A program made the position numbers and the translations under genes. Shown piece by piece: positions 19,167 to 60,188 of a stretch of DNA of 64,000 bases; position 1 is the stretch's first letter, and every line of letters begins with the position of its first letter. Source of the DNA: Candidatus Bilamarchaeaceae archaeon (lineage in GTDB: Archaea > Micrarchaeota > Micrarchaeia > Anstonellales > Bilamarchaeaceae); the NCBI GenBank assembly GCA_038870635.1, contig JAVZJR010000003.1, positions 1 through 64,000 of the forward strand, read 5' to 3'. The notes beneath the pieces were generated by a model that searched no databases, was not told the DNA's origin, and saw nothing but the letters and a program-made list of their open reading frames with translations.

Positions 19167-19568
19167 ATGTTAGGAATGGTTGGGATAAGGCTTCTTGACG
19201 GAAGTGTAAAGATAAAAGAAGACACGCCACCCAAAGGGCTTGCAATCGATTTAAAGATAACGAAGATAAGCAAAACTGAAAGGCCAGAGCTTGCGAATGT
19301 AAAGTTTTCTTATACAGTCTCATACACGCCAAATACAGCAGTGCTTAAGCTTGAGGGAGACGCGTTATTTACTGATGAACCAGCTGTCCTAGAAAAAATA
19401 ATAACATCTTGGAAAGAAAAGGAAAGAATAGATGAAGAAATAGCAGCGCGAATACTTAATTTCATAAATCCGTTTGTAACACACAATGCCTTACTTATGC
19501 TCCGCGCGTTTAACCTTCCGCCACATATATCCCCGCCTCCGATAATACCACAGAAAAAAAGCAAATAA
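19167..19568 (+). CDS. Archaeal hypothetical protein
   Basis: GGTGA RBS; beta-rich N-terminus, C-terminal NLPPHISPPP. Confidence 0.75.
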   Translation: MLGMVGIRLLDGSVKIKEDTPPKGLAIDLKITKISKTERPELANVKFSYTVSYTPNTAVLKLEGDALFTDEPAVLEKIITSWKEKERIDEEIAARILNFINPFVTHNALLMLRAFNLPPHISPPPIIPQKKSK

Positions 19569-24159: not shown

Positions 24160-24169
24160 GTGAGCACGG

Positions 24170-28040: not shown

Positions 28041-28224
28041 GAGCGTAAGCCTTTGCCCTTGTAATACAGAAGTCAAAGGCTTCGTAAGAAGCCAAGAAAA
28101 CAGGAGAAAACATAAAACGGCTGCGGTGGCCGATGAAAACATAAGTCCACCGCACATAGAAAACAGAAAGTATAACAGAGAAAACAGTAAGAAGCCAAGA
28201 AAACAGTAAGAATACCTAAAAACG
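28041..28224. repeat. Structured dispersed non-coding element, copy 1
   Basis: Near-identical to 49231-49459; stems AAGCCTTTG/CAAAGGCTT and TGCGGTGG/CCACCGCA; six GAAAACA motifs. Confidence 0.9.
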
Positions 28225-34980: not shown

Positions 34981-35601
34981 ATGAGTTTTATACTAAAAAG
35001 AAAGGGAAAAAATAAAGACCGCACAGAAGATGTATTTTCTAAAAAAGAAGTTATCGACGAAAAGTTAAGAAAAATTCAGATAACTTATCTTACAGAAAAA
35101 TTCGCAATGTATAGGAATAATATAGAATCTGCTAAAATGGATTTAGAAGAATACGAAAAACTAAAAGACAATTCTCTTAAAGACTTAACGCAACAACTAA
35201 AGGATGCGATAAAAGAATGGGAAAAAAGATTAAATGAAACAAAAGAAAAATTAGCTTCGATAGTTGAAAGTGAAAGTGAAATAGATAAGATAATTGAAAA
35301 AACAAAACAAAAAATAAAAACGCGCAATTTTATAGAAAACGCTAAAAAAATAATAAAAGCAAGCGTGTTCACGTTCATAACAACACTCGTGATTGTAAAT
35401 CTTATAGGAGTTCCCATTAATGAAGCTATAAAAAATCCTATGTTATTTTATCCAACTTTTATTGTGGCATCTTTGTTAAGTGCGTTCTATATAATAAGTC
35501 CAAAAAGAAAAGAATTTTTGCAAGCGATAAATGAAAAAGTCAAAAAAGATGAATTAGACATAAAAGAAAGAGTGCAAAAAAATGCCGCGGGTCGGATTTG
35601 A
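34981..35601 (+). CDS. Coiled-coil protein with two C-terminal TM helices
   Basis: K/E-rich heptads then two hydrophobic segments; 3' end overlaps tRNA-Phe. Confidence 0.7.
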   Translation: MSFILKRKGKNKDRTEDVFSKKEVIDEKLRKIQITYLTEKFAMYRNNIESAKMDLEEYEKLKDNSLKDLTQQLKDAIKEWEKRLNETKEKLASIVESESEIDKIIEKTKQKIKTRNFIENAKKIIKASVFTFITTLVIVNLIGVPINEAIKNPMLFYPTFIVASLLSAFYIISPKRKEFLQAINEKVKKDELDIKERVQKNAAGRI

Positions 35602-35669
35602 ACCAACGACCCTTCGGTATCTGCGGAAATCGCTTCAGCCGAATGCTCTCCCAACTGAGCTACCGCGGC
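35583..35669 (-). tRNA. tRNA-Phe(GAA) with 14-nt intron at 37/38
   Basis: GCCGCGGTAGCTCAGTTGGGAGAGCATTCGGCTGAAG[cgatttccgcagat]ACCGAAGGGTCGTTGGTTCAAATCCGACCCGCGGCA. Confidence 0.92.
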
Positions 35670-35757
35670 ATTAAAATGTGTGTATAATCTTTTAAACGAA
35701 AAGTTTAAAATTGTTTGAAAATGCAAGATTTTTTATTAATATCACAAGCATAAATAT

Positions 35758-36000
35758 AATGGTGAGGGGAGAACAGCTTACCGGTTTTCACCGGAGGAAG
35801 TTCTGTCCACGGGAGGCTGATGCTCTTAAGGAGCGGAAAATGTAATAGAAACGATACCCTACGGGGATGAAACGGACATTTTCCAGCCTTTGACCGTGCA
35901 AGGCCATTTGGCCGCTTTTCAGGCTAAAACCTGAAACCCGATAGATTCGGTGTAGTATAATGCTGTTTAAAACAGAAGACAGGCTACTTCCCTCACCATT
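35758..36000 (+). ncRNA. rnpB: Archaeal RNase P RNA (compact)
   Basis: P1 AATGGTGAGGGGAG/CTTCCCTCACCATT; CR-I GAGGAAGTTCTGTCCAC pairs with CR-V AACAGAAGACAG; AGAAAC and TGAAAC motifs. Confidence 0.92.
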
Positions 36001-37299: not shown

Positions 37300-38952
37300 A
37301 TGGCAAAACAGGTTAGTGGAGAGCCGATGTATGTGCTCCCAGAAGGGGCGCAGAGGATCATTGGAAGAGACGCGATGAGAATCAACATAGCAATAGGTTA
37401 TGCGGTAGCAAACATAGTAAAGACAACGCTTGGCCCAAAAGGAATGGACAAGATGTTGGTAAGCGACTTAGGTGACATTGTAATAACAAACGACGGCGCC
37501 ACTATATTAGAAGAGATGAATGTTGACCACCCCGCAGCAAAGCTTATGGTAGAAATTGCAAAAACGCAAGATAAAGAAGTTGGGGACGGCACCACAACCA
37601 GTGTTGTCATAGGAGGAAACCTATTAAAGAATGCAGGCACATTACTTGATCAAGGTATTCACCCAACAACAATAATAAAAGGCTATGAAATGGCAGAGCG
37701 CGAGGTTGCAAATCTACTGAACAAGATAAGTAAAACAGTGACGCCAAATGATAGCGAACTTTTAGAAAAAATAGCATTAGTGTCTATGGGGTCAAAAGGC
37801 ATAGGAAGCGAAGAGGAAAAGAAAAAATTAGCGAAGCTTATAGTAGAAGCGATAAAACAAATAGCAACTGAAAAAAATGGAAAATATGTTATAGACACTG
37901 AATTAGTTAAGATAGAGAAAAAAGCAGGTGGCGAAGTCCTTGACACCGAACTTATAAAAGGCGTGGTTGTTGACAAAGAAGTAGTACATGCAGGTATGCC
38001 TAAACTAGTAAAAAACGCAAAGATTGCGCTTATTGATGCGGCGCTTGAGATAGAAAAAACAGAAACCGATGCAAAAATAGAGATAACCTCTCCAGAACAA
38101 ATGGAAGCATTCTTAAAACAAGAAGAGAAAATGCTTAAAGATATGGTAGAAAAGATAAAAGCAAGTGGAGCGAATGTTGTTTTCTGCCAAAAAGGAATCG
38201 ATGACTTAGCACAGCATTACTTGGCAAAGGAGAAGATAATGGCTGTGAGAAGAGTCAAGAAAAGCGATATGGAAAAGTTGGCAAGAGCAACTGGCGCAAA
38301 AATAGCATCCAGCATAGAGGACTTAAATGCAGATGACCTTGGAGAAGCTGGCTTAATAGAAGAGAAAAAAATAGGCGGGGAGGCAATGGTTTTTGTACAA
38401 AACTGCAAAGACCCAAAATCCGTCAGCATATTCGTTCGAGGTGGCACCGACCACGTAGTAAGCGAAGTTGAAAGAGCATTAAAGGACTCGCTTGGTGCAG
38501 TTTCATCTGCAATAGAATACGGTAAGTATACTTTTGGTGGCGGCAGCGCAGAAATGGCGCTCAGTGCTGCATTACAAGAGTATGCGGTTAAAATAGGTGG
38601 AAGAGAGCAATTGGCGATACAGGCTTTTGCAGAAGCATTAGAATCAATACCAAAAGCGCTTGCAGAAAATGCAGGGATGGATGCGATTGACACAATCGTT
38701 GTATTAAGAAATAAACACAAAGAAGGAAAAACAACTTATGGTATTGATGTTATCGGTGGCAAAGTGGATGACGTTGAAAAATTAGGAATTCTTGAACCTA
38801 CGAAAGTAAAAAAGCAAGCAATAAGCTCGGCTACTGAAACTGCAAGATTAATTCTTAGAATAGACGACATAATAAGTTCAAAAGGTAAGAGCAGCTCCAC
38901 AAGTGGAGCAAACCAATCTGGAGGCGGAAGCCCAGGAATGGATATGGAATAA
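37300..38952 (+). CDS. ths: Thermosome (group II chaperonin) subunit
   Basis: [32 protein letters not shown]. Confidence 0.97.
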
Positions 38953-39003
38953 TTTTTTCCTTTTTTACTATTTTTTAAATGTTTTTATCCATAATTACAT
39001 AGT

Positions 39004-40707
39004 ATGGCAAGGCAGACTGAGCTAAAAAGCAACGAAATCCTCCAACAAGTGCCCCAAAAAAATATTACGGCAAGAATTTTAGACACACATAAAAAACATA
39101 ATCAAATGATAAAAAAAATAGAACAAAGGCTCGACTATTTAAAAGAAAAATATGGTATAAAAGAAGAATTGGGATTATACTTATTGGGTTTTTTAGCAGG
39201 CGCAATGGATGGTAAAAACTATCTAAAAATTGTGCCTTTAATCTTTTCAAATGGAAAAGCAATGCAAGTCTCTGAAATTTTAAAAGATAAAAACATAGTA
39301 TTTGCCATAGATGACTTAAAAAAATTAGTAAAAAACAAAGAAGAGATTTACAATTTTTACAATGAACTAGAAAAACTAGATTCAAAAGATTTAAGCAAAG
39401 AAAAATTGTGGGAGGCGTATATAAAATCATACGAAAGGAAGTATATACTAGAATATGTTAGTGGATTATGGGAAAAAAGTTACACAGAAGGAAAGTACGA
39501 AATCATTCCAGAAGAAAAGAAAAAAATACCTGAATTAAGAGAAGAACTTATAGAATTGCCGCCAACAACAACTGACCTCTATATTTATGGCTCTAGACCG
39601 ATATATTTTGACAGTCAGACGGGTATAAGCGGGACAAAAGAACAGATTAAATTAGTTCGAGAAGCAGAAATTAAAAAAGAGATAGTGGGCAATGACGAAA
39701 TGCTTCTCTATCTTCTTCCGTTGATAGGAACGGGTTATGCTCTTGTAAAAGATTTAAGAATAATAAAAGAAGGAAGCGAACAAGAGCTAATTAAAATAGG
39801 TAAATTAAGAATCTCAGAAAAAGATATAGGCAAAGGAATGCTTGTGCTTGACCTGTTGTTTGGATGGTGGGACGCAAGTTTCGTTATCCATTTAGGAGCA
39901 AAAAGCGCTGTTAAAACAGCAGCACGGGAAATTGAAAATGTAACAAAAAGTGGGAGGGCGATTGCGGTAAGTGAAATAAACAAAAAAGTCTTATTAAAAG
40001 CAGCAGAAGAATTGGACAATAACGAAATGAAAAAGTTCATAGAGATATTAGGACGAAACCCAAAGTTAGGAGAGGAAATAGTAGCTAAAGCAGGAGGTGT
40101 AAACAACATAACAAAGGAAATACTTAAGGAATATATCAACAAAGAAAAAACAAAAATTAGCACAGTAAAAGAAACAGCACTTTTACTTTCTGAAAGAAAA
40201 TTTAGAGAGTATGCACCTCTCGTCCTTTTCAAGGAAATGGCAGAAAGAACAGAATTAGAATCATTAAGATATCTTGGACAAATGGCAAAAGGTTTAGATG
40301 AAAGAGAAAGAAAAATTGTGCTTAAGGCAATATTCGCTACACTAACAACATTTGACAAAAACGCTCAGAAATCCCTTGCGAATTACGTAAAGAAAAATGG
40401 TTGGAAAGGAATAATAGAAAAAATAGAAATGAAAAAAGATGTCGTAAGGGCACTACAGGAATTGTTTCCAGAATATAAAGATGCTTATAAATATGCACCT
40501 TTGGAGGACATAGTAAAAACAGCGCGAGACCTAGGCGCATTGCACGCGGTATTTGTGTTTGTGCAGTTAATTGGCAGTTATATAAGCACAAAAGAAGAAG
40601 AAAAGCTAAACGAGATTGAATTTATGCAAGGATTAAAGGAACTATCGTATAAAGAAAAGAACAAGGGGTTATTAGATTTATTTATGAAAAGTTATGAAAA
40701 TAAATAA
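39004..40707 (+). CDS. Orphan membrane-associated helical protein (567 aa)
   Basis: Hydrophobic hairpin LLPLIGTGYAL...VLDLLFGWWDA and a C-terminal TM. Confidence 0.8.
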   Translation: MARQTELKSNEILQQVPQKNITARILDTHKKHNQMIKKIEQRLDYLKEKYGIKEELGLYLLGFLAGAMDGKNYLKIVPLIFSNGKAMQVSEILKDKNIVFAIDDLKKLVKNKEEIYNFYNELEKLDSKDLSKEKLWEAYIKSYERKYILEYVSGLWEKSYTEGKYEIIPEEKKKIPELREELIELPPTTTDLYIYGSRPIYFDSQTGISGTKEQIKLVREAEIKKEIVGNDEMLLYLLPLIGTGYALVKDLRIIKEGSEQELIKIGKLRISEKDIGKGMLVLDLLFGWWDASFVIHLGAKSAVKTAAREIENVTKSGRAIAVSEINKKVLLKAAEELDNNEMKKFIEILGRNPKLGEEIVAKAGGVNNITKEILKEYINKEKTKISTVKETALLLSERKFREYAPLVLFKEMAERTELESLRYLGQMAKGLDERERKIVLKAIFATLTTFDKNAQKSLANYVKKNGWKGIIEKIEMKKDVVRALQELFPEYKDAYKYAPLEDIVKTARDLGALHAVFVFVQLIGSYISTKEEEKLNEIEFMQGLKELSYKEKNKGLLDLFMKSYENK

Positions 40708-40727
40708 AAAATGTTTATAACAGAGAT

Positions 40728-43274
40728 ATGTTGGTGATGTTTATGGTTGGTGGTACTATGGTACAAGAAACGTCTGAAAAAAATCCTCAAGAAAAGAGTG
40801 GAATGGACCGTATTAAAAAAGGAGTGCAAAAAATTTTACCACAAAAAAAAGGAAAGAGTATGCCTCATCATCTTGGTGCTCTGATGGAGGAAAACGATTA
40901 TATTAAAAGAGCTTTAAAAAAATTTGAGGATACATATAAAAAATTGCCGCAAACAGAAGCAAAAGAATTACTAAACAAAATTTACGAAGAATACAAAGAA
41001 GCTCTTGAAAGAAACGACAAAGAACAGATAACAATTCTCTATGACATTTTGCAAAAACTTCAAGCAAAAAGAGACGACGTAAATGTAATAAAGATGAGCC
41101 CTATTTTAAAAACAAAAGCAATGAAACAAGAATTAAATGCTGATGATGTGATAAGAATAATAAGCATCGATTTAAAAAATAACGAAAATAAATTAATGAG
41201 TTGGTTAAAAAATCTAAAGTTAGATATGGCAGAACAAGCTGCACTTTTAGTTGAACTAGAAAAAAGAGGACTAATAAAAAGAGATATTATTTTCCAAACG
41301 TTTGAGCGGTTAAGCGGAACAGTAGATGAAGAGATAATCAATAGAATAATAAATGGGCAAACAGCAGTAGATGCTATCGCAAATAGTATACCATCACACC
41401 TCAGAGAAACATATAAAAAATATCAAAGCAATACTTTATCTGAAACTATAAAAAATATAGATAACAGGATAGATGAAATAAAAGATCAAATTAAAAGAAA
41501 GCTTTATGTAGACCAAGCTTTAGATGACGAACTAAAAACTTTAAATGAATTAAAAAATGAAGTGAAAAAGTTTATTGAAGGGGGAACCGAGGCTCTTGAG
41601 ATTTTAGGGAAAAGAATAAGCACTATAGCAGAAGAAGAATTAAGAATAAGCCAAGAGCTAGCTTACCTAAACCGACCGTTTTCATTTAACCTAGGTATAT
41701 TTAAAAAACCAATTATTTTTGGTTTGTGGGCAGGCGGGCTTTATGGTATTTATGAATTAGCAGAAACACCGTGGGCTTCAGTAACAGCATTTATTTTCGG
41801 AATAGGAACGTACTCAACATACAAAAAAGCCAAAGAAGTTGAAGGCCTACGGGCTAGAATAAGAAGAACAGGACCAATAGCGATTTTATGGGCAACTCTT
41901 ACTGGAGTTTCTGGTTACTTAACTTACGAAGCTCTGCAAAAAAAAGAGAATGAATTACAAAACGAACTTATGAAAGAATACAAGCTTTCAAGAGAAGAAA
42001 TAAAAAGATTGGGTGATTTCGCAAAATCAAAAGAAGGAAAAGCAGTGATTAATTATCTAAAAGATTTAAGAGGTAAAATGGTGCGAGAAGGAGAGAGATT
42101 AGATTTCAACAAATTAGAAGAATGGCTCAAAGACGAAAAAACTATTGGTTCATTCAAAAATCTTGAATATTTCATTAAAGCCCTGCTTGAAATTGCTCCT
42201 CTTGTGAAAAATAAAAATGAAGATGAGATAAAAAGAATAATAAATCAAAAAATAGATGAATTTAAACAAAAAGGTTATCTCTACAATAAAGGAGAAAGTG
42301 TGCTTTTTGAATATGGGTTAGCGATTGGCTTATCTGAACAACAAATAGAAAAATTACTATCTTCTGCTGAAAATAAAAAAGAAATTGTTGAACTTTTAAA
42401 AGCAGTTTATGAAGGTAGATTACCGCAAAGCTATGCAATGATATATGCTGAGTTTATACTGCAAGGCAAAAAAGAAGAAGCAGAAAAACTTCTCCTTCAA
42501 CAACCAATACAAAAAAACTCAGCACTCGATCACTTGGACAGGTACACATTGGATATATTGATGGATCCTAATAAAGACATAAAAGAAAAACAAAATGCAA
42601 AAAGGAGATTAGACGAAATAATTAAGTGGTATAATACAAACGAGACGTACAGAAACAATTTAAACCAATCTCTGGGTGAAAACGTAATTTATGGTGATGA
42701 TAAATATGGATGCATAAGTGCTATTATGAGAGGTGACATAACTATAGAACAAATTGCTAATGGTGAAAAATTAGAAGTAGGATATATAATAGCGAACCCT
42801 TTATTAGCAATGATTGACAAGAGATTCATAAGCGATGCGCGAGCAGCAAATTTTGTTAACGAATATGGTTTGCTAGAATTTATTAAAGGCTATATAAAAG
42901 AGAATAAAATCGGCATTGATGCCTATGGCTTAGTAAAAGAATTAGAAAATGATAAAACCTTTAGAGCTATAGATAAAAATAAAAGAAAAGAGTGGTTAAA
43001 GGAAAATCTTGAAAAAGGATTGCTAAAGAAATATCTAAAAACTAAAAATTTGGAAAGAACATATATGGCAAACGGAATAGAAACTGCTCCCCCTACCATA
43101 ATAGAAAAAAAAGAGGGGAAAAGGGCACCTCCAAGCAAAAGAGCACCTCCAAGCAATACTCCTTCACAAGTAATACCAAGGAAAACAGAAAGGCCGCAAC
43201 AACCATCAGGGCGTAAAAAAGTAGGAAAAGAGGAAGAAGGAGGGGGAAAAAAAGAAGAGGAGATAAGTTGGTAA
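40728..43274 (+). CDS. Orphan coiled-coil membrane protein (~840 aa, 3 central TM)
   Basis: Three Gly/aromatic TM segments; disordered tail; start may be a downstream ATG. Confidence 0.8.
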   Translation: MLVMFMVGGTMVQETSEKNPQEKSGMDRIKKGVQKILPQKKGKSMPHHLGALMEENDYIKRALKKFEDTYKKLPQTEAKELLNKIYEEYKEALERNDKEQITILYDILQKLQAKRDDVNVIKMSPILKTKAMKQELNADDVIRIISIDLKNNENKLMSWLKNLKLDMAEQAALLVELEKRGLIKRDIIFQTFERLSGTVDEEIINRIINGQTAVDAIANSIPSHLRETYKKYQSNTLSETIKNIDNRIDEIKDQIKRKLYVDQALDDELKTLNELKNEVKKFIEGGTEALEILGKRISTIAEEELRISQELAYLNRPFSFNLGIFKKPIIFGLWAGGLYGIYELAETPWASVTAFIFGIGTYSTYKKAKEVEGLRARIRRTGPIAILWATLTGVSGYLTYEALQKKENELQNELMKEYKLSREEIKRLGDFAKSKEGKAVINYLKDLRGKMVREGERLDFNKLEEWLKDEKTIGSFKNLEYFIKALLEIAPLVKNKNEDEIKRIINQKIDEFKQKGYLYNKGESVLFEYGLAIGLSEQQIEKLLSSAENKKEIVELLKAVYEGRLPQSYAMIYAEFILQGKKEEAEKLLLQQPIQKNSALDHLDRYTLDILMDPNKDIKEKQNAKRRLDEIIKWYNTNETYRNNLNQSLGENVIYGDDKYGCISAIMRGDITIEQIANGEKLEVGYIIANPLLAMIDKRFISDARAANFVNEYGLLEFIKGYIKENKIGIDAYGLVKELENDKTFRAIDKNKRKEWLKENLEKGLLKKYLKTKNLERTYMANGIETAPPTIIEKKEGKRAPPSKRAPPSNTPSQVIPRKTERPQQPSGRKKVGKEEEGGGKKEEEISW
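43119..43154 (+). repeat. 18-bp in-frame tandem duplication (KRAPPS x2)
   Basis: aaaagggcacctccaagc / aaaagagcacctccaagc. Confidence 0.8.
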
Positions 43275-43295
43275 AATAATGAGGTGAGATGTTAA

Positions 43296-43886
43296 ATGGT
43301 TGTAGCAAAAGTTGCACCAAAAGAAAAAAAAGAAGAGACAGTAGACGAAATAATAGATAATTTTATAAAAATAGAAAGAGGAAAAGATGTAATTAGTTAT
43401 TTCATTGGAAAAGAGGAAAAAATAAAATCCAATAAAGAAAAATTTATAGATAAATTGTACAACCGATTAGAAAAATATATGCTTTCGGATGAAAAGAAAA
43501 GAGAAATCGTAAAAAAGAACAAAAAACAGATTATTCAAACTCTTAACAAGGATAAGTATTATACCAAATTGAAAGACTATTTTCCAACCGAAGACGATGC
43601 TTTTGATTTTTATGTAGATAATGTTAAAAATATAGATGCGCTTTACAATAAAATAAAACTTAAGATTGACACTAAAGAAAAATTAGAAAGAATAAAGGAA
43701 TTTTTAACTAATGAAGCACAAAAAGACGAACGAATAAAATCTGAATTAAGCGATTATGTCAAAATAAATTTTGAAAAGGCACGATACTCTGTTTTTGGGG
43801 CGATGCTTTATTTGCGAGCTAAAGAAAACCCAAAAAGTGAGCCGTGTGAAGAATCATTAATAAAAAAAGATGAGTTTACATTTTAG
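43296..43886 (+). CDS. Orphan helical protein
   Basis: GAGGTGA RBS; 196 aa. Confidence 0.75.
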   Translation: MVVAKVAPKEKKEETVDEIIDNFIKIERGKDVISYFIGKEEKIKSNKEKFIDKLYNRLEKYMLSDEKKREIVKKNKKQIIQTLNKDKYYTKLKDYFPTEDDAFDFYVDNVKNIDALYNKIKLKIDTKEKLERIKEFLTNEAQKDERIKSELSDYVKINFEKARYSVFGAMLYLRAKENPKSEPCEESLIKKDEFTF

Positions 43887-43947
43887 GATTGAAACCAAAA
43901 AACACCATCCAACAGGATTTTAAAATAGTTACTATAAATTATAAATT

Positions 43948-46900
43948 ATGGCTGATGGAAAAAAAACAATCAGCTTACGCTATAAAATAATTTCCAATAT
44001 ATTACTTGTTAGTTTATCAACTACAACTTTTTTCTCTCAGCCTAACTTTAAAAATCCTTTTAGGCTAAATGATGTTATGGCAGAGGGATATCGTGTCTCT
44101 AAACAACCACAGGAGATAGACATAAATAAAAAGATAGAAGAAATAACAAAGATAAACAATGAGAAAAAGAAAAACCAGAATATAGAAGAATTGATAAATT
44201 ATATTAATAAAAATAATAAAAATTTAAATAACTTTTTATCAACCTTCAAACAAACAACACTTAAAGCAATGGATGATCCTCAAGAATATCAAAAATTCCT
44301 TATCTATGTGCAAATAATAAATAAAATAGAACTACACAAAAATGAAAATTTCATTAGCATAGTAAAAGAAATAATAGAAAAAATTAAAGAGGAAAAAAAA
44401 GATATTTGGGAAGCTTATGATAAATATCTGAAGGATAAGGGTGAAAAACCAAAACTGACAACATTAATCAAAATAATAAATGATATAAAAACAGGGGAAG
44501 ATTCTTATCCGAACTATCTTAAAGAGGCCGTACTTGGGGGAAAAAAGGGAACACAGGAAATACCACCATCATTGATAATACCGACTCCAATCAAAAAGAT
44601 TGATAAAGAAGATATAGAAAGCACATTAAAATTTGCAGAAAAAAGAATAGAATATGCTAAAGAAACCATACAACAACTTAAAGAAATGGCTAACGAAATA
44701 AAAAATAATGAAGAAAAAAAGAAGGTAGACGAAATTATTGCAAAATGGGAAGAAAAAATAGAAAATTATGAGAAGATCATAAAAGAGAGTAAAGAAGCTT
44801 TCTATAAAACTTCTTATGAAAAAGAAGATGCGACGAAAATAAAAAACATAACAAAGATTGCAACAGAAATTGAAGAATTTATTAAAAATGAATTAGTTCA
44901 TTCGAGCGACATAAGAATAACAAAACAATTTGCTTATCACCTTATAGGAGCAATGACCACCGGTACAGAAGGGGACTACACAGAAGTACAAAAACTTAAA
45001 GCTATTCTTGAAAACACGAAAACGATAGCACCAAAAAAATATGAATTTTGTATAATGCTTATTAAATCATTCGTGCAAGAGGTCTCACCGGATGTCTACA
45101 AAGCATTAGAAAGCATTAATTCTGAGAGAGCACTCAATATAGCGATAGCAGCAGTATTAACTGCAAATGATAGAGAATTACAAAAAATAAAAGAACAATA
45201 TGGCAATGATTTTGTATCTTATGTTTTAGGAAATAGAGAAAAAATAAATGAAAAAGAAATAAGAGAAGAAGCGAAAAAAAGGATAAACATTGACTTTGAA
45301 ACTCCAATTACACAATCGCTTGCTTTGCTCGACGCAGTGAGAATTCTTAGAAATCGACTTACTTATATTCTAACATCAACTGATTCATTAGAGAGTATGC
45401 AAAAAAACATCTCAAATTGGATGGAGAATTATAAAAAAATAGCAGGCAATGATCTTGCCTTACTCAACTTATTTTATGATATCGATAAAATAGCCGAAAC
45501 TGCGGGACTAAAAAAACCAACCAACACAGAGGAAGCAAAAAAACTATTTTTAGAGATTTTTAATTACCTCAATCAGAACCAACAACAAACAAATATAGCT
45601 TCTGCTGATGCGATAACAAAATTTTATCTTTTAAAAGTAAGAGAGCTAGCAACCAAATACAATCTAGACGCAAAAGCAGTAGAAGCGATGGATATATCGA
45701 TAATCGCCTTGGAAAAAATAGATCGTAAATTAATACCTGCTTTTTATGAGGATGTAGTTGTAGTATTAGCAAAAACACTAGAAGGTAGATCTGCTGAGTT
45801 CTCAGAATCATTACTAACTTTTAGCGGTCTTCTTCAAGCTCGCTATCCCACTGAAAGAGCAAATCTGTCATTTTTAGTTTTGGATGTAGAAGAAAAATTC
45901 AAAAAGGTATTTATATGGTTTAAAGAGAATATACCACAAGCAACAGCGAAAATGACTCATTATGAACTTATGGAAGAAACAAGAGAAAGAAGTGAACTAA
46001 CAGAATACGAAGTTTACCCCCCCTATAACTTATATGGATTAAAAGAATCAATATGGCAAAGACCATCTGCGGTCTATTTTCAGGATGTATTTTATAGATA
46101 TGGAATTGATTATCTTCCAAATCCTCAAATTCCTTACCCTGCTACAATGCCTTATGGCCCATTGACAATAAACACAGATGCAGAAGGACTTCACCTAAAA
46201 TTAGACAACCAACTTAATCCATTCATTCCTACATTTGGAAGACCAACCTTAAGCGGAGATTTTAGGATTACTGCAGTTTCAAGAGCAGTCATGCTTGCAA
46301 CAATAAGAAAAGCATTCGGTCAAATATCTATGTATTCTCCATATGAATTAATAGCGGCATATGGTGAAAGCGCAGGGTATTATAGATGGGAAGAAAAAAA
46401 AGGAGGAAAAATAACTGAAACGATGGGGGCAGGCGGCCTCAGAGGTAAATATGAAGAAAGGCATCCTGCTGGTGGTTTAGCTGCACAAATAGTAGGTGAA
46501 AAAAGCACAACAACAAGAGAAGAAGGTGGTGGCACTGAGGAAATCAAAACAACAATTGGAAAAACAGATTTGTATGGAACATTAACTGGCGGCGGTGTTG
46601 GATCCATAGTCACCGTGGCGGATAATTTAAGATTCACAGAAGAAGAAAGACCGAATAGCAAAAATGCTGCTATGAAAGCTACCATCAATCAATTAAGCGC
46701 ATTATCACAAGAAAATGGACAAAGTTTGCTTGTTTATTTCCCTGATATTGAGACAGAGGAAAAAATAGTAAAAGATGAAAAAGGCGTGGAAAAAACAGAA
46801 AGTAAAAAAATAATGGGTGGGAAGGTCTACTATATTAATCCTCATGGTGATGTTTATCAGTTAGCACTTGGCCATAATGAGTTTGATGCTTTTAAGCAGT

Positions 46901-49173
46901 TCCTTTATGGAAGCATGGAAAAAGAAAACGTGCTCGCTAGCATGCGAAAATATGGCCAATGGGGTAAAACCGATATTGAAAATTTAGGTGGAGCGATTGG
47001 TTTTACTATTGGACCTATCGCTACGTTTGCCATGGAAGATGCAATTAGAAGGATAGGCGCGACAACCACAACAAAATATGACGAAACTGTAGGGAGAAAT
47101 GTAAGTGTTGTTGATTTCACAAAACTTGAAGCAGTTGGGTATAGCGGTGTTCCGCTTGCAATGGCATTTAATACATTAGAAAATGGGACTTTTGCTTTTA
47201 TAACCAGATTCTCAACGCCTGTAGAAACAGTGACTAAAGAAAGTACATCAAAAACAGGACCAGCATATGAAAAAGGCATCTATAACTTAGAAATGATAAT
47301 AAGGAATATACAGCCACAAAGAGAATATGAAGTAAGAGTAATGGGAGGCTGGCCTGGAGATTTTGGTGTGCTTTATAAAATAGGTAAAAAGGAGGGAGAG
47401 AAGGAAACGCGATGGCTTGCTAAAGCATCTACATCTACTTATATTCTTTATTCTGATCTTTTCACCTATGAAAGAGAAGCACAAACAGTTGCAGAGTATG
47501 TTAGAACAACAATGGGCGAATTGTATAATTGGAGCGAAGATAGAAAAACAATGGAAGGACATTTTATTGGTTTTACATTGATGAATGCTGCAATTTCAGA
47601 TACTATGGAGAAATATACAAAGCTTTCTGACATGGGATGGGATAATACTTATTTCACAGTCGTGGGATCATATTATGCTAAAAAGTTTGGTATGTTCGGT
47701 GGTTTAGAAAGAACACCAGGATATGGTAATCAAATAAATCAATTAACACTGCTAATAGAACAACGAAGACAAGAGATGTTGCAATATCCTGAGAGGGCTG
47801 AAGAAATAGCAAAATCATTGGATGAAGAGATAAAGAGGATGAGGAATACCAAGTTTTGGAAACCAGTTGTTGGTATGCAATGGGACCCAGAAACATTCCA
47901 AGTCAGACTTATAGGAAAAGCAGAAATAGCAGAGTACAAGGAGAAAGGTATCGACCTTGGCTATTCATTATTTGGCGGAAACTTTTTTGTTGGACATAAG
48001 AAAGGAATGCAACCTTACTTTGAATTATCAGCTAATACTCTGAGGTATAACCAAAATGCCTATCTTGATTTATTATTTGCTTTGGGAGCTGCAAAAGTAA
48101 ACTGGAAACCTTCAAGCACATTTACATTTTATACAAGTGAGAAAGATAATTTAGAAGGCATTATGAAGTGGTTGAAAAACAACAAAAAAGAATATTTAAC
48201 TGCGTTGTTCACAAAATACTATAAACTCGATCAAAATCTCGAAAAAATAGAAAATTATAAAGTAGAGATGGCCAAACATCTCAAAGAAGAAGGAGGGGCA
48301 AAAGTATATTATATTCTTTTTGACCAAGCTAGAGAGATAATTTTTATAGGAAATGAAAAAGATAGAGAGAGTTGGATTGATAAATTCCTTGAAGAAGGTA
48401 AAGATTTCTTTGTGCTCCATGCAGAAAAAGAAAAAGATGGGACGAAAATAACAATAGAAACAGCAAATGTCAACGAAAGCAAAATTATGCCAAGAATGAA
48501 GTTAATAGGCAGCGTCCCGCTTAAAATGTATGAAAAAGAAACAGAAAGGGTTGGAGGAGTGGGAGCACTTTTGGCCGATGTATTCACTAACTACAAACAA
48601 CAATGGCTTATGGCGTTAGTGGCAGGAAAAAGAATATTTGAAAATGAAGATTGGTCACAGTATAGTTTTGTTGTTTCAACAAAATGGAACAATGTTAATC
48701 TTGCCAACATTCAAGATAAAATGTATGGCTACGTTGTGATAAATCACATAACAAAAGAAATCAGTGTTATTACACCTGAAGAAATGAAAGAAGAGATAAA
48801 GAGGACAACTGGTGCGACAGGAATAACTTGGGCGCGGTTTGATGGTATTCTAGGTGAAACAGCAAAGCTAAACTTTTATCTTGAGGCAGGTGTTGAAGAA
48901 TATACAACATCTATCCAAAAAATAGGTGAAGCATCAAAATATTATAATGAGAAACTGATAGGTAGGTTAGGATTAAGTTATGATTGGAAACAACAACTAT
49001 ACGGATACCCAGCATGGCTAACAATAGGAATAGTCGGATACGTTGGTTATTGGCCTCTTTTAGGCGTACCTACAAATATAACTGATATAAGAACGCTAAT
49101 GCAACAACCATTCTATGGCGCTCCTAATTATGATACAAGAGGAGTTATGTTCTATATTGGTGGAAGTTTCTAA
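43948..49173 (+). CDS. 1741-aa exported orphan: helical N-terminal half, putative C-terminal beta-barrel
   Basis: Signal-like segment ending VMA|E; Gly/Tyr-rich amphipathic strands after ~aa 800; ends RGVMFYIGGSF. Confidence 0.8.
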   Translation: MADGKKTISLRYKIISNILLVSLSTTTFFSQPNFKNPFRLNDVMAEGYRVSKQPQEIDINKKIEEITKINNEKKKNQNIEELINYINKNNKNLNNFLSTFKQTTLKAMDDPQEYQKFLIYVQIINKIELHKNENFISIVKEIIEKIKEEKKDIWEAYDKYLKDKGEKPKLTTLIKIINDIKTGEDSYPNYLKEAVLGGKKGTQEIPPSLIIPTPIKKIDKEDIESTLKFAEKRIEYAKETIQQLKEMANEIKNNEEKKKVDEIIAKWEEKIENYEKIIKESKEAFYKTSYEKEDATKIKNITKIATEIEEFIKNELVHSSDIRITKQFAYHLIGAMTTGTEGDYTEVQKLKAILENTKTIAPKKYEFCIMLIKSFVQEVSPDVYKALESINSERALNIAIAAVLTANDRELQKIKEQYGNDFVSYVLGNREKINEKEIREEAKKRINIDFETPITQSLALLDAVRILRNRLTYILTSTDSLESMQKNISNWMENYKKIAGNDLALLNLFYDIDKIAETAGLKKPTNTEEAKKLFLEIFNYLNQNQQQTNIASADAITKFYLLKVRELATKYNLDAKAVEAMDISIIALEKIDRKLIPAFYEDVVVVLAKTLEGRSAEFSESLLTFSGLLQARYPTERANLSFLVLDVEEKFKKVFIWFKENIPQATAKMTHYELMEETRERSELTEYEVYPPYNLYGLKESIWQRPSAVYFQDVFYRYGIDYLPNPQIPYPATMPYGPLTINTDAEGLHLKLDNQLNPFIPTFGRPTLSGDFRITAVSRAVMLATIRKAFGQISMYSPYELIAAYGESAGYYRWEEKKGGKITETMGAGGLRGKYEERHPAGGLAAQIVGEKSTTTREEGGGTEEIKTTIGKTDLYGTLTGGGVGSIVTVADNLRFTEEERPNSKNAAMKATINQLSALSQENGQSLLVYFPDIETEEKIVKDEKGVEKTESKKIMGGKVYYINPHGDVYQLALGHNEFDAFKQFLYGSMEKENVLASMRKYGQWGKTDIENLGGAIGFTIGPIATFAMEDAIRRIGATTTTKYDETVGRNVSVVDFTKLEAVGYSGVPLAMAFNTLENGTFAFITRFSTPVETVTKESTSKTGPAYEKGIYNLEMIIRNIQPQREYEVRVMGGWPGDFGVLYKIGKKEGEKETRWLAKASTSTYILYSDLFTYEREAQTVAEYVRTTMGELYNWSEDRKTMEGHFIGFTLMNAAISDTMEKYTKLSDMGWDNTYFTVVGSYYAKKFGMFGGLERTPGYGNQINQLTLLIEQRRQEMLQYPERAEEIAKSLDEEIKRMRNTKFWKPVVGMQWDPETFQVRLIGKAEIAEYKEKGIDLGYSLFGGNFFVGHKKGMQPYFELSANTLRYNQNAYLDLLFALGAAKVNWKPSSTFTFYTSEKDNLEGIMKWLKNNKKEYLTALFTKYYKLDQNLEKIENYKVEMAKHLKEEGGAKVYYILFDQAREIIFIGNEKDRESWIDKFLEEGKDFFVLHAEKEKDGTKITIETANVNESKIMPRMKLIGSVPLKMYEKETERVGGVGALLADVFTNYKQQWLMALVAGKRIFENEDWSQYSFVVSTKWNNVNLANIQDKMYGYVVINHITKEISVITPEEMKEEIKRTTGATGITWARFDGILGETAKLNFYLEAGVEEYTTSIQKIGEASKYYNEKLIGRLGLSYDWKQQLYGYPAWLTIGIVGYVGYWPLLGVPTNITDIRTLMQQPFYGAPNYDTRGVMFYIGGSF

Positions 49174-49230
49174 TTATGGAGCAAAGTTTTCAGATAAATT
49201 AGTAGTATAGTTAAAAACCAGTTTTAAAAC

Positions 49231-49459
49231 GAGCGTAAGCCTTTGCCATCGATAGCTATGCTATCGAGCTGTAAACGTATAGACGTTTACACAAGGAGAT
49301 GATAGAAGTCAAAGGCTTCGTAAGAAGCAAAGAAAATAGGAGAAAACATAAAACGGCTGCGGTGGCCGATGAAAACATAAGTCCACCGCACATAGAAAAC
49401 ATTAGAAATACAGAGAAAACAGTAAGAAGCAATGAAAACAGTAAGAATAACTAAAAACG
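49231..49459. repeat. Structured dispersed non-coding element, copy 2
   Basis: 64-nt core identical to copy 1; same stems with two extra hairpins in the first loop; abuts tRNA-Arg 3' end. Confidence 0.9.
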
Positions 49460-49557
49460 GGCCTGGCAGGATTTGAACCCACAACCGCCTGGTCACTCCT
49501 ACAATCAGGAGAGTGCATCCGAAGCCAGGCGCTCTATCCAAGTTGAGCTACAGGCCC
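49458..49557 (-). tRNA. tRNA-Arg(TCG) with 25-nt intron (49494-49518)
   Basis: Acceptor GGGCCTG/CAGGCCC; anticodon stem CCTGG/CCAGG; bulge-helix-bulge (CUUC/GGAG helix, GG|A and UG|A bulges). Confidence 0.95.
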
Positions 49558-57175: not shown

Positions 57176-58780
57176 CTAAAAATTTACAAAGGTAAAAACT
57201 AACATGCTTGCAAAAGAGAGCAACACGAAGTAGACCGCACCTCTTGACTTTCTTCCTTCAATATCTGCGACATAAAGAGAAGCGATTAAAGCATAAATAA
57301 TTAAATACGCAGGTATAAGCGAAGTTATAAAGTTTAATTTTGCTGTGGCTATTGTGCTATTCTCAATTATGAAGGTCGCTATACTGCCAATGAGTGAAAG
57401 AGAGATTTTCAATATAAATGGTATTATCAAACCACCGAATAAGATGGTGTACTTTTGCATTGACATCAAAGCCGCTCTTTCCCTTTTTATTTCAAAGTTT
57501 TTTAGTATATCCTCAGCGATGAAGTGTAGCTGTTCAACAGAATTAGTGTCGTAAGCATGTTTTATCATCATACAAACTTTTTTTAGAGCAGGCGATTCAT
57601 TTCTTTTCCAAAAATCTTCAAGCACCTTATCAGTGTTTATGTTTGTGTTTAACTGCCTTTTAGCTATGATTGCCTCTTCTGAAAGTGCTTTGTAACCACC
57701 AGACGCCATAACTTCAAATATTTTCTCAATCTTTGCTGATTTTGGTAATGCAGCGATAGAAAAAAGAGCATCAGGTAAATACTGTTCTATTTCCTCTATT
57801 CTCTTTTCTTTTTTATAGTCTTTGTATATGCTCGCCCCCATGATGATAAGACCTAATAAAACACCAACCACATTTATAATAGAGTCGTTGAGTAAGGATG
57901 AAATTATAAAAAGTCCGGCGCCTATTATAAGACCTACTGGTGGCGCGGATTTTTTTGGCATTAAAGGACTGTAAGGAACCATACTTTTGCTGAGCAAGAG
58001 AAGGGCTGCGCTTATCGCGGGAAAAACTATTAACAAAGCCAAAGCAATAGTGAGATCATCAAGAAAACTGCCACCGCTATAATTCCCCACAAGCACATAT
58101 ATTATAAAGAAAGTGGGGAGTATAGCAGTAGTCATTATAAAAAGCATTCCAAAAATAGCATTTTTAGAAGCGCTTTCTCTTAACTCATGCTGCTGGACAG
58201 CTAAGAGTTCATCGCCTATTCTTTTCATCTCAGTTCCTGAACTTCCTACTTCATACGCTGAGAGTATTTGAGCAAGTGCTCTTTTTATAGAATAAGATGA
58301 GAAAAGAGTGGCAAATCTTGAAAAAGATTTTTCAAGTGTAATCCCACGATTAACATCATTTATTATTTTTTTTATTTCTTCAGCCATTTCACTTTCTTCT
58401 TCAGCAGCCATCGCCAAGCATCTTATAAACGGTATTTTCATATTTCTGAGCATTCCAATAGTTCTTAATAGAAAAGGCATTTCAGCTTCCATTTTTTTTG
58501 TTTTTGTTTTTAACTCGAAGGAAGGCAATGAGATTAGAAAAAGAAAGATTATCAATCCACTAAAAATAGAATAGGTAAGAGCATCTGTTAATTCATTAGA
58601 TGCTGCGAGCAGCAACAATAGGATTAAGATAAAAAAAATAATTGAAACTGTAAGTGAAAGGGTAAAGTATTTGCCTGTTTTTGTTTGAGGGTAAAGCTTC
58701 TCTAAAGGTTCAAGTAATTTGCTTTTTACTTCTATTTCAGGAAAGTTTTGCGAAAGTTCAGCGAGATTTTTTAGTAGCAT
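57176..58780 (-). CDS. Type IV pilus/T2SS-F membrane platform protein (two domains)
   Basis: EAEMPFLLR and EQYLPDAL repeats; multiple TMs; overlaps the ATPase gene. Confidence 0.85.
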   Translation of the reverse strand: MLLKNLAELSQNFPEIEVKSKLLEPLEKLYPQTKTGKYFTLSLTVSIIFFILILLLLLAASNELTDALTYSIFSGLIIFLFLISLPSFELKTKTKKMEAEMPFLLRTIGMLRNMKIPFIRCLAMAAEEESEMAEEIKKIINDVNRGITLEKSFSRFATLFSSYSIKRALAQILSAYEVGSSGTEMKRIGDELLAVQQHELRESASKNAIFGMLFIMTTAILPTFFIIYVLVGNYSGGSFLDDLTIALALLIVFPAISAALLLLSKSMVPYSPLMPKKSAPPVGLIIGAGLFIISSLLNDSIINVVGVLLGLIIMGASIYKDYKKEKRIEEIEQYLPDALFSIAALPKSAKIEKIFEVMASGGYKALSEEAIIAKRQLNTNINTDKVLEDFWKRNESPALKKVCMMIKHAYDTNSVEQLHFIAEDILKNFEIKRERAALMSMQKYTILFGGLIIPFILKISLSLIGSIATFIIENSTIATAKLNFITSLIPAYLIIYALIASLYVADIEGRKSRGAVYFVLLSFASMLVFTFVNF

Positions 58781-60188
58781 TTTTAGACCTCTTTTCTTTT
58801 ATATCTGTGGCATTTTCACTAAAACTATACATCTTTTGTTGGAAGTCTTTGTAAAAGTTCACAAATTCAAGTGGGGCTTTTTCTATTATTTTAGTCCTCA
58901 ATTTCCATTCTTCAGTAAGCTCTTTACTGCTCATGTTGAAGCTCGTTGCGATTTTCTCAAAGAGTTTACTGCTTTTTTTGAATCTTAATTTTTTACTTTT
59001 GCTATCAATCACAAAAATTGTATTTATGTTTTTTCCTACTTCTGCTATCTCAGTCATTTTTCTTATTTCAACATTCTTCCTTTTTTTCTTATCGTAAACG
59101 AGCATCCTACGTTGGATTACTAAACAATCTATAGCTTCTATATCATTTTCATTTATTCCGAAGGTTTTAATTCTCTGAACCGCTTCATACGCACCCTGCG
59201 CGTGTATGGTCGCATAGCTTCCTCTCGCTTGGCCAGCGAGTAAAACATCAAAAAGTGCTTCAAATTCTATTTTATTTCTCACTTCGCCTACTATCATCCT
59301 ATCCGGTCTCATTCTCAATGTATCGTACATCAAGTCCTTTAAACTTATATTCATATCTCTATTTGCAACTAGTCGCAATTGGTGCTCGTGCGGGATGTTA
59401 ATTTCTGGTGTTTCCTCTGCTATTATCACGCGCTCGTTCCCAGGTACAAAAGAGAATAATGCGTTTAGCAAGGTTGTTTTTCCGCTTCCTGTGTTGCCAC
59501 CTATAACGACTGAGCTATCGCTTTGCATTACAAGCGAGAGAAATGCCAGTGCTTCCGTTGTTGTTGAACCAAGTGTAGCGAGTTCTTTTGGCGAGAATGG
59601 TCTTGATCTAAATTTTCTTATGGTTATTTCCCCTGCGGATATTGGCGGCAATGATGCATGAAGACGACTCCCATCGGGAAGCATTGCGTCTAATCTTGGA
59701 TTTTGAAGTGTGATATGCCTACCTAAACCCATTGCCATCTTATTAACAACATCTCCTATTGCTTTTTCACTTGTGAAACAAGCATTAACCATTTTCCATC
59801 CTTGATTTTTTACGTATACATAAGCAGGTTTGTTTATCCCAATCACACTTATCTCTTCTATATTTGGGTCTTTTAACAAATTTTCTATGAATGCAAAACC
59901 ATAAACGTGCAGATAAGCGAATTCTGTAAGGTACTCCATCTGGTCTGTGTCTAATACTATTCCATTTTCTTCTGCAATTACTGTTAAAAGGTTTTTTATA
60001 AAATCTTTACTTTCCTCAGGTGTGCTAATATCTTTTGCGCGTACTGCTTCCCTGAATCTCTCCTCAATATTAAATATCATCTGTTCTTCCTCTTGACTAA
60101 GACGGGGAAGAGGAAGTTTGTACTCACCCTCACTCAATATTTTCCAACCTAGCATTAAATTTCTATAGGAAGTAAGATTTTTTAACAT
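58758..60188 (-). CDS. Type IV pilus assembly ATPase (VirB11/CpaF family)
   Basis: LPDGSR, TIRKF, GNTGSGKTT, EETPE, LRMRPDR..VGEVR, TIHA. Confidence 0.93.
   Translation of the reverse strand: MLKNLTSYRNLMLGWKILSEGEYKLPLPRLSQEEEQMIFNIEERFREAVRAKDISTPEESKDFIKNLLTVIAEENGIVLDTDQMEYLTEFAYLHVYGFAFIENLLKDPNIEEISVIGINKPAYVYVKNQGWKMVNACFTSEKAIGDVVNKMAMGLGRHITLQNPRLDAMLPDGSRLHASLPPISAGEITIRKFRSRPFSPKELATLGSTTTEALAFLSLVMQSDSSVVIGGNTGSGKTTLLNALFSFVPGNERVIIAEETPEINIPHEHQLRLVANRDMNISLKDLMYDTLRMRPDRMIVGEVRNKIEFEALFDVLLAGQARGSYATIHAQGAYEAVQRIKTFGINENDIEAIDCLVIQRRMLVYDKKKRKNVEIRKMTEIAEVGKNINTIFVIDSKSKKLRFKKSSKLFEKIATSFNMSSKELTEEWKLRTKIIEKAPLEFVNFYKDFQQKMYSFSENATDIKEKRSKNATKKSR

Follow-up and report, generated by a model that had tools for sequence, protein, structure and literature searches.

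The stretch of DNA analysed here, which we refer to as the window, comprises the first 64,000 nucleotides of contig JAVZJR010000003.1 in the assembly GCA_038870635.1 of a Candidatus Bilamarchaeaceae archaeon, and our subject is a set of four genes in it, designated A, B, C, and D, the last of which encodes a giant, predicted exported protein. The four open reading frames (ORFs) follow one another in the same orientation, separated by gaps of 20 nt (A-B), 21 nt (B-C), and 61 nt (C-D), and they lie between a thermosome gene and a gene for tRNA-Arg (Table 1). The genome to which the window belongs is archaeal, 859 kb in 8 contigs, and 89.6% complete; the close relatives of the locus proteins are recorded at NCBI as either "Candidatus Bilamarchaeaceae archaeon" or "Candidatus Micrarchaeota archaeon," and the public sequencing runs that contain the window stretch are labelled hot springs metagenomes. 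The Bilamarchaeaceae have been proposed as a family in the order Anstonellales of the Micrarchaeota (PMC8561730). The initial annotation, prepared from the window itself, had described these genes as tight, co-oriented, and free of any recognised motif, with a hydrophobic pair of segments in A, a B protein of about 840 amino acids (aa) with three transmembrane segments, and an exported-looking D with a barrel-like C-terminus, and it had proposed that they could form a machine spanning the envelope or contacting a host. The description agrees well with what we found: the gene order is as stated, the neighbours were confirmed by Pfam and Rfam matches, A carries the hydrophobic pair along with a third segment, B proved to be 848 aa long with three moderately hydrophobic segments, and D combines a signal-like N-terminus with about 940 residues predicted as a large barrel-like beta structure. 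The proposal of a machine needs to be amended, as discussed below.

Table 1. Genes A to D, regions of their products, and the flanking genes, in window positions (A2 to A5 are alignments).
Feature	Position	Strand	Description
Gene A	39004-40707	+	ORF, 567 aa, orphan, no signal peptide
A, residues 232-297	39697-39894	+	Candidate membrane hairpin: two conserved hydrophobic segments with charged loop (hydropathy scan; alignment A5)
Gene B	40728-43274	+	ORF, 848 aa, predicted all-alpha membrane protein
B, residues 326-405	41703-41942	+	Three hydrophobic segments; K/R-rich loop 369-385 between second and third
B, residues 406-785	41943-43082	+	C-terminal domain, helical and conserved, with hardly any change from one strain to the other; probably outside the cell
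B, residues 786-848	43083-43271	+	Pro/Lys-rich low-complexity tail, strain-variable, 18-nt in-frame deletion
Gene C	43296-43886	+	ORF, 196 aa, K/E-rich, without hydrophobic segment
Gene D	43948-49173	+	ORF, 1741 aa, giant predicted exported protein
D, residues 1-45	43948-44082	+	Signal-peptide-like: K/R-rich start, hydrophobic 14-29, family-conserved VMA/E (slash, putative cleavage point)
D, residues 46-679	44083-45984	+	K/E-rich, presumed helical; conserved YGxxFVxYV region (composition; alignments A2-A4)
D, residues 680-800	45985-46347	+	Conserved Pro/Tyr-rich linker (EVYPPYNLY..., PNPQxPYP...); invariant columns in alignment A4
D, residues 803-1741	46354-49170	+	Predicted giant beta-barrel-like region, about 940 aa (AlphaFold2, Foldseek, VIA-align)
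D, residues 1728-1741	49129-49170	+	Last strand, ends in Phe; family motif W-[GWS]-[FILV]-M-x-x-x-G-x-x-[WF]-COOH
Thermosome gene	37300-38952		Upstream of A; Pfam Cpn60_TCP1, E 4.9e-184
tRNA-Arg(TCG)	49458-49557	-	Downstream of D; Rfam, 52.9 bits

None of the four products reaches the cut-off of a Pfam, NCBIfam, or PHROG family, the best match being that of A to TraI_2_C (19.4 bits versus a cut-off of 27.3), and PDB sequence-profile searches with the alignments of A, B, and D returned nothing below E 0.07. The possibility that A to D map to known S-layer or viral families, raised along with the initial proposal, was also followed up, and no such family was found for any of them. All four ORFs have homologues elsewhere. 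In addition, a contig of 20,491 nt originating from a related strain in another sequencing run, about 98% identical, covers positions 37300-48711 with 241 substitutions and gaps; the listed gaps preserve the frames (one of 18 nt; a pair of 2 and 1 nt), and all four frames are kept. By these sequence comparisons, A to D are real genes.

Gene D is the most conspicuous of the four, and its product is the founding member, as named here, of a family of proteins of 1.3 to 3.1 thousand amino acids (kaa). The N-termini of the family share the pattern [VSA]MA[EQ], with variants VMAE, SMAQE, and AMAE, which we read as a probable Sec signal followed by its cleavage region. In the K/E-rich half that follows, the only coiled-coil matches were sub-threshold ones, to Rad50 (E 0.07 to 0.11). 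The linker that leads into the C-terminal region is predicted unevenly by AlphaFold2 (AF2), with values of the predicted local distance difference test (pLDDT) below 50 at residues 680-715 and 764-799 and as high as 87 at residues 720-760.

An AF2 prediction for residues 680-1741 of D, built on 31 sequences, has a mean pLDDT of 62.4 and a predicted template modelling score (pTM) of 0.56, the last 250 residues scoring 80 to 95. The model is made of antiparallel strands of 15 to 24 residues, arranged in three groups (803-975, 1319-1396, and 1487-1740). Two helical stretches, at about 1169-1299 and 1402-1478, are inserted between strands. When it was compared to the PDB with Foldseek, 15 matches at E <= 0.001 were obtained, of which 12 are outer-membrane barrels, MtrB being the best (3.4e-7) and Deinococcus SlpA, the PapC/FimD ushers, and TbpA being represented as well, while the other three are lipovitellin and two chains of the microsomal triglyceride transfer protein (MTP). 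A VIA-align search against 48,161 representative chains produced 63 matches at Z >= 8, and the best 50 of these 63 are all outer-membrane barrels, including CymA (Z 13.8), OmpT (13.7), Tom40 (13.0), and VDAC1 (12.7, with a root-mean-square deviation, rmsd, of 5.5 Å over 235/283 residues). The ranges aligned by VIA-align span positions from about 120 to 1062 of the model, and therefore strands of all three groups contribute. A second VIA-align search gave Z up to 14.5, with the 50 best rows again all outer-membrane barrels, and here the lowest rmsd values belong to large barrels, FhuA (4.1 Å, Z 12.2, 248 residues), OprC (4.5 Å), and BtuB (4.7 Å). This suggests a barrel of 20 or more strands, its putative closure and strand number being judged from which structures match. 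The look-alikes of D by language model are clusters of outer-membrane proteins (OMPs), at a score of 0.82 that is within noise, as are the ESM Atlas feature scores for both D and A (0.82 to 0.85); in a viral structure library, matches to the D model did not exceed a TM-score of 0.36, and those of high probability were outer-membrane-protein-like entries.

The very end of the protein is also characteristic. D terminates in ...GVMFYIGGSF, and 28 of 42 distinct C-termini in the family end in Phe or Trp, as against 38 of 534 (7.1%) among control ORFs of at least 200 aa from the same genome, with a recurring pattern W-G-F-M-x-x-x-G-x-x-W. A terminal Phe or Trp at the end of the last strand is the beta-signal rule of bacterial outer-membrane proteins. 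The family strands that follow residue 1487 are amphipathic, with 4 to 5 alternating hydrophobic positions each, and the C-terminal strands have hydrophobic runs of about 9 to 10 residues.

There is one copy of D per genome, plus a fragment of its 3' end. In the window, positions 48682-49338, made up of the last ~490 nt of D and ~165 nt downstream, are duplicated with 96% identity at the start of contig C1 of G000 (C1:37-691), where they give a free-standing ORF of 150 aa, the similarity ending abruptly on the 5' side. In another run, the contig matching this duplicate has a depth of 176.8 versus 87.8 for its neighbours, a twofold difference, and the 150-aa protein is recorded on 5 contigs.

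The three hydrophobic segments in the product of gene B, as read from the translation, are moderate ones and fall at about residues 326-346, 349-368, and 386-405. AF2 with 11 sequences predicted helices only, at a mean pLDDT of 61.6, the best predicted blocks being about 60-300 and 460-770 (pLDDT 60 to 91 over the latter) and the values across residues 326-405 being 22 to 40. Foldseek with this model found no PDB match at E <= 0.001, the best being 0.21. The K/R-rich loop lies between the second and the third segments, and because of this the C-terminal domain is placed outside: by the positive-inside rule, B is probably oriented N-in, with its C-terminal 440 aa outside the cell. Between the two strains B is 94% identical, with the changes located at its two ends.

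As to gene A, a hydropathy scan detected hydrophobic segments at about residues 232-250 and 279-297 and a third one at residues 510-528, and its alignment (A5) contains invariant D290, E411, Q455, W467, and Y491. Because the invariant Asp290 sits inside the second hydrophobic segment, insertion of A into a membrane is something that we infer. TATA-like boxes can be made out by eye ahead of A and of D. Gene C, the smallest, is preceded by a Shine-Dalgarno-like motif, GAGGTGA, and longer homologues, of 237 to 335 aa, occupy its position in genomes G005 and G001 and in the metagenome contig L057.

What can be said of the distribution of these genes comes from samples of assemblies, many of them incomplete, in which genomes that are related do not count as independent observations. 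In an exhaustive phmmer search among 1.84 billion proteins, residues 680-1741 of D matched 31 representatives when the cut-off was E <= 0.001, and 14 of these also pass E <= 1e-30. With few exceptions they are giants of 1.3 to 3.1 kaa, matched in their C-terminal parts, and a scan of 20 of them detected no Pfam domain in any. A word-indexed search of 5.8 billion clusters returned two other relatives, and the narrower D alignment (A4) retrieved one locus from a metagenome and two from genomes, but none from viruses. Across the phylum, the D family was recognised by profile A3 in 38 of 401 genomes, including 35 of the 75 from the family of the window organism, and in only 2 of 325 genomes of other families. 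With the broader profile A7, it is present in 42 of 81 genomes of the family, in all those of genus g1 and in 17 of the 22 of genus g19, for example, while genera g3 and g13 have none (0/8 each). D evolves fast, the proteins being 36-41% identical within one genus. Homologues of A were found by profile in 9 of 81 family genomes, and a homologue of B directly follows A in every locus where the DNA continues. The homologues of B were identified by position and by iterated hidden Markov models; in a single-sequence search, only the copy of the same genome was convincing, three other matches having E values of 7e-4 to 1e-3. Word-index searches with the A profile and with B returned three proteins each, the B homologues P0037-P0039 coming from the latter.

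Whether the genes also occur together in relatives was a question attached to the initial proposal, and in a number of cases they do. Outside the window, A and B neighbour a D homologue in five loci. Two genomes possess the order A-B-C-D, G005 (635, 853, 317, and 1866 aa) and G003 (620, 952, 411, and 2117 aa). In L057, A-B-C are divergent from D, and in G020, of genus g15, A-B are followed by two small ORFs and then by D. A different arrangement is seen in genus g19, in which D homologues of 2.8 to 3.1 kaa are preceded, in 5-7 loci, by a giant protein that we call GA (2.2 to 2.8 kaa, with hydrophobic segments in mid-protein) and by a protein of about 800 aa (M800) that has no hydrophobic segment and a conserved RRR-containing C-terminus, the trio being found at L045, L046, L047, and L056. 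The C-terminal part of GA matches residues 500-722 of B with an hhalign probability of 93%. As far as gene order and sequence can tell, the co-travelling unit is A-B, often with C, and the D-family giants can pair with other partners.

Taking these data together, the interpretation we favour, tentatively and with confidence that stops somewhat short of even, is that of a lineage-restricted cell-envelope module of one Micrarchaeota family, with a barrel protein in the outer layer. According to this scheme, D would be exported through Sec, and its C-terminal ~940 residues would form a single, very large beta-barrel-like body residing in an outer, probably largely proteinaceous, layer of the envelope, where it would serve as a pore or an anchoring unit, while the N-terminal half would reach back to the cytoplasmic membrane. 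B, with its N-in orientation, three membrane segments, and outer domain of 440 aa, and A, with its membrane hairpin, would make up a platform in the cytoplasmic membrane that holds, positions, or helps assemble the giant D, and C would be a cytoplasmic accessory. Export, topology, the placing of D in the outer layer, its role as pore or anchor, and any contacts among the four proteins are what we infer; what the data show are genes that are conserved, adjacent, and devoid of known families, a predicted all-beta, long-strand architecture for D, and an all-alpha B. In support of the scheme, transmission electron microscopy (TEM) and electron cryotomography (cryo-ET) of cultivated Micrarchaeota are reported to show an envelope with a second layer (PMC8784108, PMC11329633).

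The closest architectural analogues of D that we can point to are SlpA of Deinococcus, of the S-layer deinoxanthin-binding complex, and tethers of the OmpM type. These are exported proteins whose N-terminal part faces inward and whose very large C-terminal barrel is located in the outer layer, a design similar to the one proposed for D, and the SlpA entries 8agd, 8ae1, and 7zgx occupy Foldseek ranks 3, 7, and 8 for D, 7zgx also scoring Z 9.4 in VIA-align. The rmsd of D to 7zgx is, however, 20.5 Å, so that the likeness is architectural only. Moreover, no SLH or other domain was found in D or in 20 of its relatives, no sequence relation is seen to SlpA or OmpM, and archaea of this group lack peptidoglycan to bind. 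As to the autotransporters of the type V secretion systems, no such family was found for D by sequence, its N-terminal half is K/E-rich and not beta-helix-like, and EspP, NalP, and AIDA-I appear only among the lower structural matches in Foldseek and VIA-align.

A number of observations weigh against the interpretation we favour. The overall AF2 confidence for the D model is only moderate, and the TM-scores of D to single barrels in Foldseek are low (0.1 to 0.3; 0.05 to 0.29 over the matches as a whole). In the region 803-899, the strands at 803-819, 822-839, 842-859, and 866-881 have polar or charged residues on either face, in D as well as in its family. D was not found by profile A7 in 39 of the 81 family genomes, which argues against its being an indispensable component of the wall. 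Only genera g1 and g15 have yielded A and B, as against 13 of the 23 genera for D. In G002 and G006, A-B are on a different contig from D; in G001, A was not found, and a C-like gene and a 698-aa ORF stand beside D; and in G408, of genus g15, A-B are followed by a 431-aa ORF and then by a 2184-aa protein not related to D. With A and B confined to two genera, D more widespread, and an unrelated giant in the D position of G408, the four genes do not make up a machine of fixed composition: of the single four-gene machine originally proposed, what stands is a conserved module whose members co-occur, and what does not is the invariance of the unit.

The G408 protein (locus L073, G408:C46 1660-8214, minus strand) was itself considered as a divergent D and rejected, at an hhalign probability of 0.1%. 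It starts with an AMAE motif resembling the one that follows the signal region of D and ends in ...QGTFY, and it may represent a different giant client of the same platform.

Among the alternatives, three seem to us about equally improbable. The first takes the barrel at face value. The D-family giants, with more than 20 strands, would then be the first archaeal beta-barrels of the outer-membrane type, embedded in a genuine second membrane or a lipid-containing sheath of the Bilamarchaeaceae, with the aromatic C-terminus as the insertion signal, and they would be tethered or inserted by an inner-membrane system other than Omp85, represented by A-B-C in the window and by GA-M800 in other genera. 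We consider this unlikely. All the best structural matches of D are indeed membrane barrels, and the conserved terminal Phe or Trp and the amphipathic C-terminal strands fit such a protein. Published observations can be cited on either side: "inner and outer membranes" were reported from TEM in Micrarchaeon ARM-1 (PMC8784108) and from cryo-ET in ARMAN (reviewed in PMC4243693), while the outer layer has been reinterpreted as an S-layer both in Ca. Micrarchaeum harzensis (bioRxiv 10.1101/2021.04.28.441871) and in ARM-1 (PMC11329633); the organisms in these reports, moreover, belong to orders other than that of the genome studied here. The both-face-polar strands of region 803-899, which have no hydrophobic face to offer to lipid, together with the failure to find Omp85 (PF01103 was without a match at E <= 0.01 in this genome, which is 89.6% complete, in a search whose control was positive in 7 of 14 reference genomes), argue against a classical lipid-embedded barrel.

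The comparison with bacterial and organellar OMPs (porins, TonB-dependent transporters, ushers, MtrB, LptD, VDAC/Tom40) points in both directions in much the same way. D resembles them in the predicted meander of long, tilted, antiparallel strands, in the signal-like N-terminus, and in a last strand ending in Phe or Trp. It differs from them in having no sequence relation to any OMP family (as judged from Pfam and NCBIfam for D and from Pfam for 20 relatives), in being encoded by an archaeon in whose genome Omp85/BamA was not found, in lacking a continuous hydrophobic belt on every strand, part of the sheet having no hydrophobic face, and in its organisation, a barrel region of ~940 aa with two helical inserts placed after an N-terminal extension of ~680 aa.

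The second alternative is a device for contact with a host, in which D would be a docking or pore structure in episymbiosis, for example receiving or forming an intercellular channel, and the upstream genes would vary with the host. The patchy, lineage-specific distribution, the fast evolution of D within a single genus, and the exchange of partner genes between genera (A-B in g1 and g15, GA-M800 in g19) would all be in line with such a role, and a study on ARM-1 describes in its envelope a 21-nm "barrel-like structure" which docks host nanotubes (PMC11329633). Nevertheless, we consider this role improbable as well. Pfam searches detected no adhesin-type domain in D or in 20 relatives, D is present as one copy per genome plus the 3' fragment, and its family extends to very few of the phylum genomes sampled from other families; in addition, the Anstonellales are argued to be less host-dependent than other DPANN (PMC8561730).

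The third alternative is that D is the lattice protein of the S-layer or sheath of this lineage, B being its membrane stalk and the "barrel" being either an artefact of prediction or a pore of the lattice. The analogy is with SlaA and SlaB of the Sulfolobales, in which the gene for a large outer protein, exported and rich in beta structure, has as its neighbour the gene for a helical partner anchored in the membrane. The pair of D, large, exported-looking, and beta-rich, and B, its membrane-anchored helical neighbour, may be likened to these, and no recognisable S-layer domain was detected in the genome, in searches with PF07752 and TIGR01567, or in D. This last negative weighs little, however, as the PF07752 model is positive in just 2 of 401 phylum genomes. 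Searches of PDB structures with the D and B models found no match in sequence or fold to SlaA or SlaB, and the membrane segments of B, three in number, lie in the middle of the protein, in place of a single anchor at one end. D is predicted as long-stranded and barrel-like, not as a chain of beta-sandwich domains, whereas archaeal S-layer proteins are reported to be of a beta-sandwich or Ig-like domain type (bioRxiv 10.1101/2024.05.28.596244). S-layers have been documented in two cultivated Micrarchaeota (bioRxiv 10.1101/2021.04.28.441871; PMC11329633). On the other side, D was not found in nearly half of the family genomes, including all those searched of genera g3 and g13, and we judge the chances of this alternative as low as those of the preceding two.

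A fourth possibility, and a decidedly weaker one, is that D binds or transfers lipids, its large curved beta-sheets enclosing a cavity of hydrophobic character, comparable to that of the large lipid transfer proteins or to the grooves of AsmA/TamB-like proteins, and moves lipids across the envelope or from a host. Lipovitellin and MTP are found at Foldseek ranks 2, 4, and 5 (E 1.7e-6 to 2.9e-5), and the C-terminal strands do have one hydrophobic face, but these matches have probabilities of only 0.28 to 0.47 and TM-scores of 0.06 to 0.08, neither protein is among the 50 best VIA-align rows in either search, and the genome retains at least the geranylgeranylglyceryl phosphate (GGGP) synthase, all of which makes a lipid carrier very improbable. 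Least credible of all is the notion that the cluster is cargo of a virus or mobile element integrated at tRNA-Arg, for which one could cite its position next to the tRNA gene, a genomic neighbourhood that varies between species of the genus, and weak, sub-threshold matches, one with TraI_2_C and one with a PHROG for a phage minor tail protein. Integration linked to the tRNA was rejected, as a search for an att-like direct repeat of it came up empty; in addition, the neighbours are housekeeping genes with no integrase or capsid family among them, 2.9 million viral contigs contain no relative (0 of 67 pattern matches confirmed), the viral structure library yielded no closer match than mentioned above, and in its GC content the cluster does not stand out from the window.

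The neighbours of the cluster in the window are archaeal housekeeping genes, for thermosome, GGGP synthase (PcrB, detected in the genome at E 3.5e-49), a proteasome subunit, FttA, and a class I lysyl-tRNA synthetase. The tRNA-Arg(TCG) gene has an intron of 25 nt in the anticodon loop; it is recognised by intron-aware ARAGORN and missed by ARAGORN in its default mode. Directly behind its 3' end, at about 49217-49481, lies the structured repeat that the initial annotation had noted after the four genes. The repeat is real and contains a hairpin, and it is one member of a family scattered over contigs C1-C5, where blastn finds 28 more matches, many of them in tandem arrangement and one within the window (28068-28224). 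It is not specific to the locus and is not part of the module.

Some other features of the window may be mentioned. An archaeal RNase P RNA is encoded at 35761-35997 (plus strand; Rfam, 87.4 bits), adjoining a tRNA-Ser(TGA) at 35582-35670 (minus strand). The minus strand at 57176-60188, which is 8 kb farther downstream than the cluster, encodes two components of an archaeal machine resembling a type IV pilus, namely a T2SSF-like platform protein and a T2SSE-type ATPase. Another tight group of orphan genes, with ORFs of 1154, 488, and 789 aa that have no Pfam family, is located at 20695-28002. It is similar to A-D in being a tight set of large, familyless proteins with a copy of the dispersed repeat behind it, but it was rejected as a homologue of A-D, BLASTP detecting no similarity and hhalign assigning none of the pairs a probability of more than 40%. 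The D-type cluster of G002 and G003 adjoins orthologues of the window gene at 19167-19568, which flanks this second cluster in the window.

In conclusion, the proteins of the module fall into no known sequence family and match no solved structure by sequence, and its most striking feature, the predicted giant barrel of D, rests on one structure prediction of moderate confidence. In the literature on outer membranes and beta-barrels of Archaea, DPANN, and Micrarchaeota, and on Bilamarchaeaceae, no such proteins are described, the supplementary proteome tables of the cited papers not being covered by this search. The envelope of the DPANN is the site of their symbiosis, and almost none of its proteins are known. 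As to the second layer of the Micrarchaeota, the literature disagrees on whether it is a membrane or an S-layer, and the module offers concrete, clonable candidates with which to approach the question. If D were embedded in lipid, it would be a first for Archaea, and if D-family proteins were indeed the first archaeal barrels of a second membrane, then barrel-based outer envelopes would have arisen independently outside Bacteria and organelles. If, instead, D is part of a protein lattice, it would be an S-layer pore or anchor of a kind not seen before. In both cases, A and B would constitute a novel platform in the membrane that handles giant surface proteins.

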